A stretch of 20,000 nucleotides of DNA from an uncultured virus (IMG/VR IMGVR_UViG_3300010003_000012) (lineage: Duplodnaviria; Heunggongvirae; Uroviricota; Caudoviricetes): the IMG/VR virus record IMGVR_UViG_3300010003_000012; one strand, written 5' to 3'. This document shows positions 13,971-20,000 of this stretch, one piece after another; positions within the stretch are counted from its first letter, which is position 1, and each line of letters begins with the position of its first letter. Below the pieces are notes generated by a model. That model ran no database searches. It worked only from the letters and a program-made list of their open reading frames with translations, and had not been told where the DNA came from. Position numbers and translations under genes: made by a program.

Positions 13971-14000
13971 TTTAATTTTCCCCTGTCATTTTTTATTTTT
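13971..14000 (-). repeat. Modular gene-leader repeat (RBS module)
   Basis: Minus strand AAAAATAAAAAATGACAGGGGAAAATTAAA-ATG. Confidence 0.85.
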
Positions 14001-14004
14001 TAAC

Positions 14005-14373
14005 TTAAACTGTTATAGCTCGTTCGAACGCTTCACGCTCACTCATACCCGACTCTACCAAGTGAAGATACTTTATATAATTACTTCCATAGTTGAAGGT
14101 CATGTTTCTTCTCATGTACTCGTTGATAGCAGACTTTATTTTCTTCACATCGAAGAGATGCGTTACATCGTCGGTCACATCAAACTCATCTGTGTTGGCA
14201 CAGTATATTTTTGCATCACCTGATTTTTTATCAATCTCCAAGCGGAATACTTCTTGCGACCATCCGTCACCAACGTATACTGGCTCCGTCTCAAATTCAT
14301 AGCCATTAAATTTTAATTCCGGATGTTCGATTTTAGCCGTTACATGGTTTATTATCTCTGTGAGTCTCTTCAT
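14005..14373 (-). CDS. Hypothetical protein
   Basis: 122-aa ORF, RBS AGGAGAGG, TAATG overlap with the upstream gene. Confidence 0.75.
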   Translation of the reverse strand: MKRLTEIINHVTAKIEHPELKFNGYEFETEPVYVGDGWSQEVFRLEIDKKSGDAKIYCANTDEFDVTDDVTHLFDVKKIKSAINEYMRRNMTFNYGSNYIKYLHLVESGMSEREAFERAITV

Positions 14374-14642
14374 TATTTAACCTCTCCTGTCATAATTTTT
14401 TTGAGTGCTTTTACAATTGCCGTCTGAACATGACTATCATTTAAACCCTTTTCGTACTGATCTAGAATAAACTTCGTTCCAAGTGCATGACGACAGGCGT
14501 CCCATGCTACACGGACGATTAGGACGCCTAGATTGTTATAGTTGTCAGATTTTTTAATAGCCTCGTAATGCGAGGCTATTATTTCTTTCTGACTCTCAAA
14601 TGCATTTGTTACTTTTTCATAATCTACTTTGCTCATCTTCAT
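14373..14642 (-). CDS. Small hypothetical protein
   Basis: 89-aa ORF preceded by the repeated leader. Confidence 0.8.
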   Translation of the reverse strand: MKMSKVDYEKVTNAFESQKEIIASHYEAIKKSDNYNNLGVLIVRVAWDACRHALGTKFILDQYEKGLNDSHVQTAIVKALKKIMTGEVK

Positions 14643-14672
14643 TTTTATTTTCCCCTGTCATTTTTATTTTGG
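14643..14672 (-). repeat. Modular gene-leader repeat (RBS module)
   Basis: Minus strand CCAAAATAAAAATGACAGGGGAAAATAAAA-ATG. Confidence 0.85.
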
Positions 14673-14679
14673 ACGTTAC

Positions 14680-15285
14680 TCAGTCTGTTTCTTCTCCGGT
14701 TTCCATTCCTAGCTCTATACGCCACTCAATCATTTCTTTATGGCTTTCGAATACTCTGTAATCGATTTGCTCAAGGCAGTTCTGCAAGTCTTCATCCTCA
14801 AGATTGGCAGTCATAATACTTTTTTCCAGTGCATGATATTCCTCGACCGTCTCGCACTCAATCATTCCCCAGTTCTCACGAATTACTTCTCGGATATGAT
14901 CAATGCCACCCTCCGACCATTCGCAAGTATCTTGAGCGTTCATGACGATGTAAGTTTTTTCTTCATTTTTCGGAACATAGACGTTGTAAGCCAAGTTTGA
15001 ATGGAAGCTGATATTTATTTCGTAGCACTCCACTCCGTCTATTATTTTTGTGTTCGGCTGTACCCAACAATCAGGAGACAATCCGATGTTGTAGTTATAC
15101 AAAACGGCTTCGCTATCAGACACTTTATTTTGAGTGTCGTGATTGAACACGAGTATTATTTTATGGAATTCACCACGCTCTAAAGATTTTTTCAACGTGT
15201 CTTTCCGGATTGTTGCCACTGCAGGATGACCAACCTTTAATTCTTTTTTCGCCAATACGCTCTCGATTGTTTTTAGGATTTTCAT
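14680..15285 (-). CDS. Two-domain hypothetical protein (N domain shared with 10492-11409; acidic C domain)
   Basis: 201-aa ORF, RBS GAGGAG. Confidence 0.8.
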   Translation of the reverse strand: MKILKTIESVLAKKELKVGHPAVATIRKDTLKKSLERGEFHKIILVFNHDTQNKVSDSEAVLYNYNIGLSPDCWVQPNTKIIDGVECYEINISFHSNLAYNVYVPKNEEKTYIVMNAQDTCEWSEGGIDHIREVIRENWGMIECETVEEYHALEKSIMTANLEDEDLQNCLEQIDYRVFESHKEMIEWRIELGMETGEETD

Positions 15286-15316
15286 TTTCTAACACTCTCC
15301 TCTATTTTTGTTTTGA

Positions 15317-15451
15317 TTACTTCTTGACTGCGTACTTCTCTAAGCCTGCCCAATATTTTTTCTCAACTTTCTTATGCTCCTTGAACAATATTGGAACTAG
15401 AACACCTATAGACATACCTGTGAATAAAGTGACGATGAATGTTAATACCAT
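15317..15451 (-). CDS. Unannotated 44-aa single-pass membrane peptide
   Basis: Below the ORF-track cutoff. MVLTFIVTLFTGMSIGVLVPILFKEHKKVEKKYWAGLEKYAVKK, with the family RBS AAAGGGGAAAATAATC-ATG; it fills the gap between two genes. Confidence 0.7.
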   Translation of the reverse strand: MVLTFIVTLFTGMSIGVLVPILFKEHKKVEKKYWAGLEKYAVKK

Positions 15452-15517
15452 GATTATTTTCCCCTTTGAGAGAGCCATTTCTGACTCTCATGATTTTATT
15501 TTTGCAATACTTTTGTT

Positions 15518-16294
15518 TTAGTGAATTTCAATAGCGACGTTGACAGAACCGACGTAGCACACTTTACACTGTCCACAATCTTTTTCTTTTGGCGTATTCT
15601 TGAATGCCTCACTTGCAGGACATGAGAAGTAATTTTTCTCCTCAAGTTGTCCTTTCGGAAGTGCAGTGAAGACACTCATGCCGACTTCTTCAGTCATCTT
15701 GACGAACTTTTCTTTCGTGTCTTCCCAAATAGATGACTTGAACGTGATGTTCACATTTTCTTTTCCGTACTTCTTGTACATTGCCTTCACAAATGGGAGC
15801 GACTTCGTATATGCCATGAAAACTATTTTTCGGTTGCCTTTAAAGTGATTCGCAATCTGTACCCACTTGTCAGTATATTCACGGTCGTAGAAGTCTCCTG
15901 CTTCGTGAATTCGGAAGAAGATAGTCTTACCCTTATTTTTTTTGCGGTCAAGCTCGAACTGTATCTGCTCAATCATAGACTCCACGAATTCTGCGGATCT
16001 CGAGAATTCTAGATTCATGTCTCGACGCTTCGCCACCGTTGGATACATTTTTTCTGCTTTCAGTGCATAGCATGATGCTTCGCACATCGCTGTACGGTAC
16101 GGACAAGATACGACGCTCGTTATATTCCACTGGTAGAAGCTAACCACCGACGAGTCTTTTAATTTTTTATTCCCTTCACTCAAGCGGAATAGGATGTTAG
16201 TAGCAGGCACAGTTTTTTTGTTTGCCTTCTCCCATTTTTTAGCCTGCACCTCGTTGTTGAATGTTGGTATTATTACGTTTGTAGCTGTTGCCAT
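15518..16294 (-). CDS. GP88-like phage protein (Cys-rich, radical-SAM-like Fe-S motif)
   Basis: GNKKL...CPYRTAMCEASCYA...FFRIHEAGDFY...AYTKS...CPA...CGQCKVC matches my recollection of the phage gene product 88 family. Confidence 0.7.
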   Translation of the reverse strand: MATATNVIIPTFNNEVQAKKWEKANKKTVPATNILFRLSEGNKKLKDSSVVSFYQWNITSVVSCPYRTAMCEASCYALKAEKMYPTVAKRRDMNLEFSRSAEFVESMIEQIQFELDRKKNKGKTIFFRIHEAGDFYDREYTDKWVQIANHFKGNRKIVFMAYTKSLPFVKAMYKKYGKENVNITFKSSIWEDTKEKFVKMTEEVGMSVFTALPKGQLEEKNYFSCPASEAFKNTPKEKDCGQCKVCYVGSVNVAIEIH

Positions 16295-16378
16295 TTTTAA
16301 TTTCCCCTGTCATGTTTTATTTTGGATTCACTAATCCATGAGAGAGACAATTTTTTGTCTCTCCTAGCATGAGTGAAT
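16295..16378 (-). repeat. Full gene-leader element: stem/internal-loop hairpin (16326-16378) plus RBS module
   Basis: ATTCACT-C-AT-GCTA-GGAGAGACAA-AAAA-TTGTCTCTCT-CATGG-AT-T-AGTGAAT, then CCAAAATAAAACATGACAGGGGAAATTAAAA-ATG. Confidence 0.8.
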
Positions 16379-16381
16379 GAT

Positions 16382-16645
16382 TTACCAACTCGTGATACCG
16401 AGATTTTTAATCGGTACACCTAGTTTATTTATCGAGTCCTCAATACGTTTAGCTCGTGATATAGCTTGAGATTTTTTCTCTTCATCGGACATCGTGAAGC
16501 TCTCAATTACCTTTCCTTCTCCCGAGAATATCGTGAAGTAAACGTTATATCCTTCGCCAAATTCTTCTATGCTAACCTCTGCATTTTTTTCTGCGTCGCT
16601 TATTATTTTGAGTGCCTTTTTTACGTCTGCTAGTGATGAATTCAT
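16382..16645 (-). CDS. Small hypothetical protein
   Basis: Start moved to MNSSL at 16645 (RBS GGAGGG, 1 nt after the upstream stop); 87 aa. Confidence 0.75.
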   Translation of the reverse strand: MNSSLADVKKALKIISDAEKNAEVSIEEFGEGYNVYFTIFSGEGKVIESFTMSDEEKKSQAISRAKRIEDSINKLGVPIKNLGITSW

Positions 16646-16646
16646 T

Positions 16647-17066
16647 TTATTTTCCCTCCGATGTATATACACAGACCTGACATGCTCCGTGGTCTGTGAA
16701 GAATTTTTCTTGGCTCTTCGCATCTTGCTCACAAGTGCATGTTAGCGTCGTCGTCATCTCTTCCCAAATCGGGTTGCCGTCCTCGTCCATATCGCAATAT
16801 GACCATCCGATTCCACCTAAACGGTCATCAAGTTCACTCAAATCTGTGACAGCTAAAATTTCTTCTACGAGTTTCTTATGCTCCTCTTCAGTCAAGTCCG
16901 AAGTGCCTCCGTAAAAGTCCTCGTTCCAGAAGTCTACAAGAAATTGTTTCATCTCTTCGAAAGTTTCTATTTCGTAGTCAACATCTATTACTTTCATGCC
17001 TTCTTCAAGCTCGTTGATATCGAACCGGAAGTATTTTTTTTCCTGTGCTTGAGTTGTGTTTGTCAT
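16647..17066 (-). CDS. Acidic protein with C-terminal Cys cluster (CxC...CxxC)
   Basis: 139-aa ORF with repeated leader; acidic domain paralogous to 12760-13209. Confidence 0.8.
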   Translation of the reverse strand: MTNTTQAQEKKYFRFDINELEEGMKVIDVDYEIETFEEMKQFLVDFWNEDFYGGTSDLTEEEHKKLVEEILAVTDLSELDDRLGGIGWSYCDMDEDGNPIWEEMTTTLTCTCEQDAKSQEKFFTDHGACQVCVYTSEGK

Positions 17067-17167
17067 TTTAAATTTCCCCTATCATGGTTTAGTTTTGGAT
17101 TGCAACAATCCATTGGCTACTGATAGCGTATCAGTAGCCTAGCATAGTTGCAATACTTTTGTTTAAG
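17067..17167 (-). repeat. Full gene-leader element: junction motif, hairpin (17099-17154) and RBS module
   Basis: ATTGCAAC-T-AT-GCTA-GGCTACTGATA-CGC-TATCAGTAGCC-AATGG-AT-T-GTTGCAAT, then CCAAAACTAAACCATGATAGGGGAAATTTAAA-ATG. Confidence 0.8.
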
Positions 17168-17606
17168 CAGAGTAAGTTACGACTGGTCGGTTCTTAGACT
17201 TATCCCAAGACAGACTGACCGAATTTGCCTGATCAATGTAATTCACTTCTCCATTCTTGAAGTAGGACTCAGCATCAACAAAGTTGCTTACGCACTGTGG
17301 CTTGTAGTACACGGGTTTCCCGTCGTGTATTGCCTCTAAGTCGTCGATGTATCCGACCATGAAAGCGTGTCTATCCTTTGCACCTGTTGGCGATTCTATT
17401 ACTTTGCGCTGTTTAGATTTATCTATGTGCGTCGTTACGTCTCGCAGTGTTATCTCGTCACAGTATCCAAGTACGAGTGCCGTGGTCTTACGTGACTTCA
17501 TGCCTACTATCGACCAACATTTTTTGTGTGCGTTCCAGTGTACTCCGACCAGTGTTTCTCCGTCTATTTTGCGTCCTTCTCGTGCAGTAAACTTCTCAAT
17601 TTTCAT
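17163..17606 (-). CDS. Conserved phage hypothetical protein; first gene of the leftward array
   Basis: VHWNAHKKCWSI...HAFMVG...VYYKP...FVD resembles a common phage family (VYxNLHxxxWSV...HAFVxG...YNP). Confidence 0.75.
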   Translation of the reverse strand: MKIEKFTAREGRKIDGETLVGVHWNAHKKCWSIVGMKSRKTTALVLGYCDEITLRDVTTHIDKSKQRKVIESPTGAKDRHAFMVGYIDDLEAIHDGKPVYYKPQCVSNFVDAESYFKNGEVNYIDQANSVSLSWDKSKNRPVVTYSA

Positions 17607-17708
17607 GTTAATTTTCCCCTTTTATGGCTTATTTGTGAGTTGCAATTGTCCATTGGACACTGATAAATCTATCAGTGACCTAGCACATTTGCAATAGTTT
17701 TGCTTTAG
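17607..17708 (-). repeat. Full gene-leader element: junction motif, hairpin (17640-17694) and RBS module
   Basis: TTGCAA-A-TGT-GCTA-GGTCACTGATA-GATT-TATCAGTGTCC-AATGG-ACA-A-TTGCAA, then CTCACAAATAAGCCATAAAAGGGGAAAATTAAC-ATG. Confidence 0.8.
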
Positions 17709-18303
17709 TTGGCTAAGCATTTTCGCTACTAACAAGGCTAAAAAGTTTGTGTTTGAAGCGGTTTTGCGAAGGTGTAAAGCGTGTGTTCAGGTGTTTCGGA
17801 AGGTGTAAAGCGTGTAAAATCTGTGTTGCTAAAGTGCAAACTTATAGCCTTGTTAGTAGCTGTTTTTACTCCTGTAGGGTATCTCCCTAGAGGGCAAACC
17901 TATTACGGTTTGTGGAACTCTTATCCTTATCTCCTCGCACACTTACTCCTCAAATCTCTCAGCTTGAGACGGGTAATTATATAGTCCACGGACTATATAA
18001 CACTCCTCACGAGCCAATCAACCGACTGTCCGGTGTGGTCATCAGTTTGCGGAACTAGGTCTTACTGTCACCCTTTTCCTGACTTTTTATCGCTATAGGA
18101 GGGAATCTACCCACCTCGCACTATAAGGCTTTTCCGAGCCAGTGCCGAATTATTCGATTGTCAAAGTACGTCTGAGTGCAGAAAGGTGTCTTGATTTTGC
18201 GTATATGCGCTCCTCCGTTTCATATGGTGGTCGACTCGCTCACACGCTCCGTGGAGGTGTGTGTCTGTCGTGTGTTGTGTTGTGTGCCGTTCTTGCTTGG
18301 CAC
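17709..18303 (-). ncRNA. Putative long structured 5' leader / ncRNA
   Basis: No minus-strand ORF of 60 aa or more. Many hairpins (17725-17860, 17977-18000, 18241-18263) and a boxA-like sequence at 18151-18169, downstream of a candidate promoter. Confidence 0.45.
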
Positions 18304-18307
18304 ACCA

Positions 18308-18338
18308 ATAATATCTCACAGGCATTTTCACCTGTCAA
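18308..18338 (-). promoter_or_regulatory. Candidate sigmaA promoter heading the leftward array
   Basis: TTGACA (18338-18333), 17 nt, GATATT preceded by TG-N, with an AT-rich upstream tract. The -10 is imperfect. Confidence 0.45.
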
Positions 18339-18441
18339 ACACTAATTTAAAATTTCCTGATTCGGGAGACCGTCCGGAATTGCCTTATTTAATTTTCAAA
18401 TGAGGCTAAAGGACTCGATTTTGGACATGAAAAAGTGCCTC

Positions 18442-19827
18442 AAACCGTTGGTACGCAAGGGTTCAAGGCACATTGGATTTTGTACGTCGTCCGGAAAGGT
18501 CGATTTTTGATCGATGGAAGTGGCTTCAGCCTTAGAGCGCCAACGGTTTAGAGCTAATTTCAATCATTGACCTAATTTAAAAAAATCAATTTTTATCCGA
18601 TTTTCCTTCGAAGTGCTATAAACCCTTATGTACCAACGGTTTATAGCCGATTTTAAGCATTGACCTAATTTATTAAAAACTTTTTTTATGAACGACTATT
18701 CATTTTTTGAAAACAGTCTAATTCACAAACTTTGTAAGCGTTCTCATAAATATTTTTTTGAGGCACACCAACGGTTTGTGAGTGTCAACACCTAAAATTT
18801 GAGCAAAGTTTGTGAAAAACCCGAGTTCATTTGAGCCTAAAACACCGATTCACAAACGACTCAAAGCGGTATGAACCCTACTGCCAGAACGGGTTAAGCG
18901 CTTACAACAAATCCGATTTTGTGAAATTGAGAGACCGCACCAAAAGCCGATGATGCCTTGAGAGGCTCTGAGCCTTAGAGCGCCAATGGTGTAAGCGTTT
19001 ACAAGACGTACCCTTTCGGTACTATCCGATATACCCTGCTGTATTACTGTCTGTATTATAAACACTATAAACGTTGATATAGAGCCATTTGTGGATGCTT
19101 AACAGGGTATAGGTGAAACAGGGTTGAGGTGGATCGATATATGCCCTCAAGTACTGGTGTTAAGCCATTTGTTGGCACATTGTATACCCTGTATACTATT
19201 TGCTCTGTATTACCTGCACTATGAAACAGTATGTGGGACGCTATATGTCCCACCTTATAGCTTATGGTATATACTGGTAACTCATAGCTTATATATAAGT
19301 TAGTGCCATATGTTGGTATATTGACAGTATATGTAAGAGATATGGATATGATTGTCAGTATATGCAATAAGTATGCAGTATGAGTGTATAAGGCTATGCT
19401 CCTATGGTGGTGTATGGCATAGCTATGGAGTGTGCTTAAGTGTTGGTACTGAAGGCTTTGGGATACCTTCGAGGGTACGGAATCCGGATATACAAATGAC
19501 TGCATATTGATTCAAAAAGACATATTGCTTGACAAGATTTTAAAAGTATGTTATTTACGTGTGCATCCATGCTAGATTGCCAGTAAATCCCAATTTCGTG
19601 AGAGTGCATAAAATCCTGCATACTGTCGATGATGAATACAGGTGCTATGATACAGTGTAAAGTGTTGGTATCACTGTGTTTAGGCTGTGTTACAGGTGGT
19701 GATATGTGGTGTTGTGGTGAGTGAATACGGATTGCATAGAGTGCATAAACAGGTCGGATTTGGTGAGTAGTACCTGCACATTCACATCACGGTGTACAGT
19801 GCCGAAAAGCATTGGCGCTGTAGGGTT
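18442..19827. repeat. Dispersed ~22-bp quasi-palindromic motif ARCCYT-N3-GYRCCAAYGGTTT, about 8 copies in both orientations
   Basis: Copies at 18442-18463(-), 18528-18549, 18621-18642, 18756-18777 (right half), 18874-18895 (diverged), 18971-18992, ~19438-19459(-) and 19807-19827(-). Confidence 0.7.
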
Positions 19828-20000
19828 CATGCCTCATATTCGATCCAAAATATGACACGATTTTGAGGCACAAAAACGTTATGCATTTTTGCACAAAAGG
19901 TGAATGAAAATCTGATGGTGTGCTGTCAAGTGATTGTACTTGACACACAGACAGAGCTTCCAGTATTTGACAGTCCTACTAATGTGTATTAGTGAGACAC

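Follow-up and report, generated by a model that had tools for sequence, protein, structure and literature searches.

Hairpins resembling the SP82/SPO1 RNase III processing sites in a putative early operon of an SPbeta-like Bacillus phage-plasmid

The closest described counterparts of the hairpins analyzed here are the RNase III sites of the Bacillus phages SP82 and SPO1. Both the kind of site and its mechanism are already known, and the sites have reportedly been in print since 1983/1998. The SPO1 sites RS-A to RS-C are presumably the mapped SP82 sites. In GenBank AF031901, six RNase III sites are annotated in the SPO1 host-takeover module, and RNase III cleavage in this module is mentioned in a passage of PMC3896407. 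SP82 RNAs are listed as RNase III targets in the relevant part of PMC4838370, and it is stated in a passage of PMC1935012 that Bs-RNase III makes a single, downstream-side cut in SP82 targets with an internal loop, like E. coli RNase III on T7 bubbles. The early sites of T7 (R1.1) are also similar to the present hairpins, with cleavage of a single strand in an internal-loop hairpin between early genes and about one helical turn above the cut (passages of PMC8708148 and PMC1935012). About 12 bp and a loop suffice for a single cut, and no strong consensus is described for E. coli RNase III, according to sections of PMC8708148. In addition, stabilization of SP82 mRNA depends on the ribosome-binding site, a result cited in passages of PMC7509114 and PMC11805744.

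The stretch of DNA analyzed here, referred to as the window, comprises 20,000 nucleotides from an uncultured virus, and all features described below are on its minus strand unless stated otherwise. The source is a ~132-kb SPbeta-like Bacillus phage-plasmid (complete record 131,737 bases) with a gene for an actin-like partition protein. The terminase of this phage shares 46% identity with YonF of SPbeta and 80-84% with those on 130-148-kb B. wiedmannii and B. velezensis plasmid records. Among named genomes, a 120-kb B. gaemokensis contig carries the nearest relative of the phage's GP88 protein. Together, the terminases of the plasmid records and the GP88 relative point to Bacillus as the most likely host genus. 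A blastn comparison of window positions 14000-20000 with GenBank phages gave no match. Two genes of the putative early operon (17606-17163 and 16294-15518) belong to early families of mycobacteriophage L5, gp82 and gp88, and have no Bacillus phage match among GenBank phages.

The operon is headed by a strong sigma-A-type promoter match (TTGACA-17-TG-GATATT, 18310..18338), identified by consensus match alone. It is followed by a structured leader of ~700 nt (17607..18305; fold z -5.3, 20 shuffles) with a 5' hairpin, a boxA-like site, a long stem and no terminator-like site. The promoter match and the terminator-free leader fit a long read-through transcript. The boxA-like sequence GUACUUUGACAA (18158..18169) was compared with the B. 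subtilis boxA consensus given in a section of PMC13753749; the word is better in the leaders of relatives, with 0-1 mismatch to the 12-letter query in three and 3 in the fourth. The leader starts with a small hairpin, GUGCC-AAGCAAGAAC-GGCAC (18305-18283), followed by an A/C-rich run and the boxA-like word (18169-18158). This layout is similar in the leaders of relatives (L003, L004, L318 and L322) and resembles an rRNA-type antitermination leader. Further downstream, a 19-bp stem (17725-17743 with 17842-17860, minus-strand RNA) encloses ~98 nt with two copies of ACACGCUUUACACCUUC, and may be another RNase III stalk from which a small RNA is released. Upstream of the operon, positions 18400-20000 form ~1.6 kb without convincing genes in which a CCTTAGAGCGCCAACGG-like word is repeated, both directly and inverted. 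In relatives this word also precedes the early operon, and it lies close to the motif copy of G230 as well. This region is a candidate origin, partition or packaging region.

Three hairpins punctuate the first four genes of the operon. Hairpin A (17640..17694) is followed by an ORF of 147 aa from the mycobacteriophage L5 gp82 family (PF25735; 17163..17606). Hairpin B (17099..17154) is followed by two ORFs without a family, the first of 139 aa (16647..17066) and the second of 87 aa (16382..16645), and the stop codon of the latter abuts hairpin C (16326..16378). The first gene after hairpin C encodes a 258-aa member of the GP88 family (PF17338; 15518..16294). All three hairpins consist of a lower stem, a 4x5 internal loop and an upper stem of 10-11 bp. 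In A, the internal loop is formed by GCUA (17684-17681) and AAUGG (17654-17650), below an 11-bp upper stem with one U.U and a GAUU loop. In B, GCUA (17143-17140) faces AAUGG (17114-17110) below an 11-bp upper stem, and in C, which has no promoter features, GCUA (16368-16365) faces CAUGG (16340-16336) below a 10-bp upper stem closed by a G.U pair.

These hairpins are real. Refolding reproduced the coordinates and minus-strand stems given in the initial annotation, with z between -4.6 and -5.9 (A -4.64, B -5.89, C -4.92), and 0 of 200 shuffles were equally stable for each. The core common to all three is U-GCUA-G, a 10-11-bp stem and NAUGG-A. The pattern TGCTAGG-N15-35-ATGGA occurs three times against 0.01 expected, a count that argues only against chance repeats as the pattern was taken from the copies themselves. 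Both in the 66-kb contig and in the complete record of this phage (131,737 bases), A, B and C are the only copies of the motif. It had been claimed that the stems differ and yet stay paired. The stems of A and B are partly shared (TTGCAA and CTGATA/TATCAG), which means that these two copies are not independent, and there are mismatches, namely the U.U in the upper stem of A and one in each lower stem. Similarly, the assignment to the minus strand is favored by the G.U pair of copy C, but the minus-strand fold is better than the plus-strand fold by just 0.8-1.6 kcal/mol in the three copies. With strand energies nearly equal, the assignment rests on this G.U pair, the direction of the genes and the SPO1 sites.

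Each hairpin ends 31-33 nt before an ATG, close to the ~30 nt noted earlier. The distance from the loop to the Shine-Dalgarno sequence is also 31-33 nt in all three, within the 26-37 nt of SP82/SPO1-type sites, and the hairpins are intergenic and on the coding strand, as is typical of such sites. Terminators, whether intrinsic or factor-dependent, or pause sites would also appear as stable intergenic stems, and one SPO1 copy of the motif overlaps the annotated terminator TL2.7 by 9 nt. However, no terminator-like site was found on the minus strand between 15500 and 18300, and no U-tract follows any of the three stems, in agreement with the initial annotation. Moreover, hairpin A sits before the first gene, and it is the loop that is conserved, not a tail. 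Intrinsic terminators were rejected because the U-tract is missing directly after the stems, and a terminator or pause role of any kind is hardly credible.

The link to SP82/SPO1 raised in the initial annotation is supported by the annotated sites of AF031901. The core of the window hairpins, as U-G(C/U)UA-G, a 10-11-bp stem and NAUGG-A, is present in four of the six (RS-A to RS-D), which share the loop, the upper-stem length and the position before the ribosome-binding site. RS-E and RS-F do not have the motif, and the RNase III annotation of AF031901 may be partly predictive. The asymmetric loop G(C/U)UA/NAUGG, closed by U-A below and G-C/U above, is found in 3/3 window copies with columns identical to those of RS-A to RS-D, and all three have a 10-11-bp upper stem of free sequence (with the U.U in A) and a short apical loop. 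SPO1 contains two further motif copies, before genes 44 and 57 (L147:4118-4150, plus strand, and L147:10552-10584, minus strand), that are unannotated as RNase III sites, and SP82G carries the same six copies as SPO1. The SPO1 sites RS-A to RS-D and the SP82 early sites thus share with the window the core, the 10-11-bp upper stem, a 3-5-nt loop and a lower stem, as well as the intergenic position on the coding strand, a start codon ~45 nt further on and the occurrence as multiple copies within a cluster of small early genes. The loop-to-ATG distance is 45-47 nt in the window, 42-51 nt in four of the six SPO1 copies and 39-46 nt in CP-51-like phages; it is 64 and 66 nt in the two SPO1 copies with an extra hairpin.

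A covariance model built from six SPO1 copies and one SP82G copy, with no window sequence included (R1), ranked A, B and C first to third among eight matches in the window (E up to 5). The three matches were full length and on the minus strand, with E values of 0.0016-0.12 (0.0016, 0.09 and 0.12), and the scores were weak for C (E 0.09) and A (E 0.12). A filtered whole-genome search with R1 missed A, B and C and returned one unrelated site. The support from R1 for each copy is real but modest. Among 11 aligned copies, changes on both sides were observed in 18 of 20 pairs, the upper stem was 95.5% paired, and the covariation score was 0.86 against 0.11-0.23 in slid controls, for a structure that was itself derived from the same 11 sequences. 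There are also differences from SPO1. The carrier here is a temperate SPbeta-like phage-plasmid, whereas that of the SPO1 sites is a lytic herellevirus; the stems are AT-rich and do not have the GGUU/AGCC lower stem of SPO1; two window copies overlap an operator/promoter element; and cleavage is predicted here.

In view of their structure, their identity with annotated SPO1 sites, their geometry and the distribution of the motif, A, B and C are probably SP82/SPO1-type processing sites for host RNase III, with a probability of about 80%. For the read-through, the cut, its position and the stabilization, we infer the following course. Transcription from the promoter near 18310 would yield a long early RNA that extends through the leader and the first genes. 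With one helical turn of dsRNA above the asymmetric 4x5 loop, RNase III would nick the 3' loop strand only. The upper stem would stay with the upstream piece and protect its 3' end from exonucleases, and the downstream piece would begin 31-33 nt before the Shine-Dalgarno sequence, where a bound ribosome would shield it from 5' decay. In this way, the front of the operon would be cut into separately stable messages, consisting of the leader, the gp82-like gene, a two-gene piece and the part from gp88 onward. Following what we take to be the SP82 rule, a cut 5' of the A in NAUGG, the 3' products are predicted to start near 17653 for A, near 17113 for B and near 16339 for C.

A covariance-model search of Bacillus phages, as had been proposed with the initial annotation, matched the motif in several lineages. 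R1, which contains only SPO1 and SP82G sequences, independently recovered copies in three other lineages (E 1e-6, 3e-4 and 7e-4), namely those of the CP-51-like contig, the B. velezensis plasmid records and the Bacillaceae contig described below. With a combined covariance model (R2), two of the 15 named phage records gave matches, CP-51 (six matches) and 0305phi8-36, the latter with one copy that is present in both terminal repeats. Under stricter filters, R2 found nothing in the other 13 records, including SPbeta, Tsamsa, SP-10, SP-15, G and AR9 as well as Bastille, Basilisk, A511, K and vB_EalM-132. Five R2 matches were found in a CP-51-like contig. The motif is also present in two of three related Bacillus plasmid records, both of which are B. 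velezensis phage-plasmids from the same clade as the window phage. These copies are located at the front of the equivalent operon, have unrelated AT-rich stems and lack the 16-bp element discussed below. Three closer relatives, G002, G003 and a B. wiedmannii plasmid (best E 0.5 in the plasmid), are without the motif in searches of limited sensitivity, indicating that it is dispensable, and R2 found nothing in 000TH008, three other viral contigs, or a B. gaemokensis genome and one small contig (0/2). A variant hairpin with a GGCUA/AAUCG loop and a 10-bp upper stem, scored by neither R1 nor R2, follows the GP88 gene in G002, the B. gaemokensis phage-plasmid (L003:1795-1845), where it is preceded by that phage's own version of the 16-bp element.

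In total, 31 copies were gathered by the loop pattern, and constancy was judged at positions outside that pattern. The U before the loop, the G that opens the stem and the A after the loop are nearly fixed (each in 30/31), and the stem-plus-loop length is 24-26 nt in 30/31. Pattern scans of IMG/VR found a stem with at least 9/10 pairs in 2 of 19 loci, both from the window phage, in 2 among the 120 matches listed (from the CP-51-like contig) and, in a third scan, in 0 among the 117 matches listed; these pattern matches are mostly due to chance and are no census. The scattered occurrence of the motif in unrelated elements that belong to one host group points to a host factor, and transfer and convergence are both compatible with this distribution.

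The conservation of the loop is stricter than RNase III is usually thought to need, at least in E. coli, as described in a section of PMC8708148. This would suit docking of an RNA-binding protein or nuclease encoded by the phage, in translational control or antitermination; binding of a phage protein had already been raised in the initial annotation. That alternative is weakened by the presence of the same loop in unrelated lineages sharing only the host group, namely herelleviruses, 0305phi8-36, SPbeta-like phage-plasmids and a Bacillaceae contig, which argues for a host factor, and it is now very improbable. A host factor other than classical RNase III has also been considered, such as Mini-III, RNase Y or RNase III that binds without cutting. 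Such a factor would be in line with the rarity of the motif in the host group. It was found in just 1 of 81 family-level genomes, represented by the Bacillaceae contig, in a non-coding stretch amid resolvase/recombinase genes, and in 0 of 151 order-level genomes, in searches whose sensitivity was limited as only 35-66 candidates were scored per genome. This rarity indicates that the motif is not a copy of a common chromosomal RNase III substrate. However, passages of PMC4838370 and PMC1935012 describe the corresponding sites of SP82 as targets of Bs-RNase III, and the chance that another host factor is responsible is slim.

Copies A and B are built on a candidate 16-bp operator/promoter element that is dispersed over the phage genome, a relationship that had been overlooked in the initial annotation. 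This element, AAACAAAAGTATTGCA, has 55 copies in the complete genome (up to 2 mismatches) and 31 in the 66-kb contig, compared with 0-1 in ten Markov controls. It is asymmetric, is spread over early, replication and structural regions, and is often found at a -35 box and again before a ribosome-binding site. The element is mostly intergenic, with 5/55 copies inside ORFs, and 46/55 are oriented toward a same-strand gene, 6 are opposite and 3 at piece ends were unscored. At hairpin A, a copy with two mismatches (17690..17705) provides TTGCAA, the 5' arm of the lower stem, as a candidate -35; a candidate extended -10, TG-A-TAGATT (17666..17674), follows 17 nt after TTGCAA, with a predicted start at 17660-17658. 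At hairpin B, a perfect copy (17149..17164) overlaps the upstream stop codon and the lower stem and provides a candidate -35; here the candidate extended -10 is TG-A-TACGCT (17125..17133), again 17 nt after TTGCAA, with a predicted start at 17119-17117. The predicted starts of A and B are 4-7 nt upstream of the predicted cuts. Further copies in the window are located at 15518-15503, 11455-11440, 8413-8398, 7983-7968 and 5349-5334.

In each of three relatives the element occurs as a variant of its own, with 20-40 copies, which resembles the behavior of immunity-type operators. The stoperators of L5 and D29 and the SPBRE of SPbeta (the MrpR operator) are likewise present as many dispersed intergenic copies, overlap or resemble -35 boxes and in some cases act as promoters, as described in passages of PMC12266134 and PMC10516654. 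In the window phage, the element is mostly oriented with transcription. It has the appearance of an operator system of the stoperator type, here in phage-plasmids of Bacillus. Identity with SPBRE or the MrpR operator was rejected, as the sequence of the element is unrelated to the word common to SPbeta MrpR targets, and the tyrosine-recombinase-like ORF of the window, the sole protein compared with MrpR, is not detectably MrpR. Near-identical promoter-like blocks, TTGACACACGGCACAGTA...GTGTAATACTATCACAGTAA, are found at 7284-7256 and 5522-5494, one of them before an XRE-type regulator gene, and possibly represent a shared operator. Six genes between 13185 and 17634 have a common pre-start block of ~30 nt, AAAT-N-AAA-N-ATGACAGGGGAAA-TTAAAAATG, which suggests repeated duplication of one intergenic module.

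It is likely, though at close to even odds, that A and B double as promoters in addition to their processing role. TAnnnT occurs exactly 17 nt after the -35 position in 18/55 element copies against a 5% background (spacings 16-18 together), and A and B are among these 18, both with the TG extension. The combination of an element ending in TTGCAA, a 17-bp spacer and TGnTAnnnT is found in A and B but not in C. The same observations could mean that A and B serve mainly as signals in the DNA, namely as repressible sigma-A promoters of the phage's element class, with the hairpin as a by-product or secondary feature. Against this, the element is missing from copy C and from the B. velezensis copies, all of which nevertheless form the loop and both stems, which argues that the RNA structure is selected on its own, and a promoter has no need of the 3' arm and the AUGG loop strand. 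In addition, both -10 boxes are rather weak (4/6 and 3/6), and A and B amount to about one independent event. A promoter role is compatible with RNase III processing, but as the sole or main function of A and B it is unlikely.

A more speculative proposal, which we hold only tentatively and at somewhat less than even odds, is that A and B are two-in-one switches, operator-promoter DNA and RNase III-cut RNA, and that UGCUAG/NAUGGA is a single-nick signal acquired or reinvented by at least four unrelated mobile-element groups. The 5' half of the A or B DNA would be an operator-controlled promoter whose transcript starts within the 3' arm and, for that reason, cannot fold the site. On read-through RNA, the whole hairpin would be present, and RNase III would cut it 4-7 nt beyond that start. 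Nearly the same message would thereby arise by two routes, with a 5' triphosphate in one case and a monophosphate in the other, and one route would be under the control of the genome-wide stoperator-like 16-bp element and the other under that of a host nuclease. In a wider sense, Bacillus RNase III would recognize UGCUAG/NAUGGA as a signal defined by its sequence.

The initial annotation had also suggested an uncatalogued RNA family. In Rfam 15, no family was found at the coordinates of A, B and C up to E 5, and the sites of SPO1 itself have no Rfam match at gathering scores. In this sense the family is uncatalogued, although SP82/SPO1 sites have been known, reportedly, for decades. A literature search with subscription journals outside its scope found no description of the motif outside SP82/SPO1 and nothing linking 0305phi8-36 with RNase III. 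New here are the presence of the motif in temperate phage-plasmids and other Bacillus elements, the letter-level conservation of its loop, the absence of an Rfam family even for the sites of SPO1 and the likely promoter overlap.

With these results, a signal previously associated with a single group of lytic phages (SP82/SPO1) is found to reach temperate phage-plasmids and further mobile elements of Bacillus. The ~30 natural variants separate what is fixed (the loop, the closing pairs and the arm length) from what is free. With them, the sequence requirements of Bacillus RNase III for nicking a single strand can be tested directly, and an Rfam-style family is justified. Finally, the promoter/operator overlap in two copies suggests that such sites may have originated from the repeated intergenic module of the phage.
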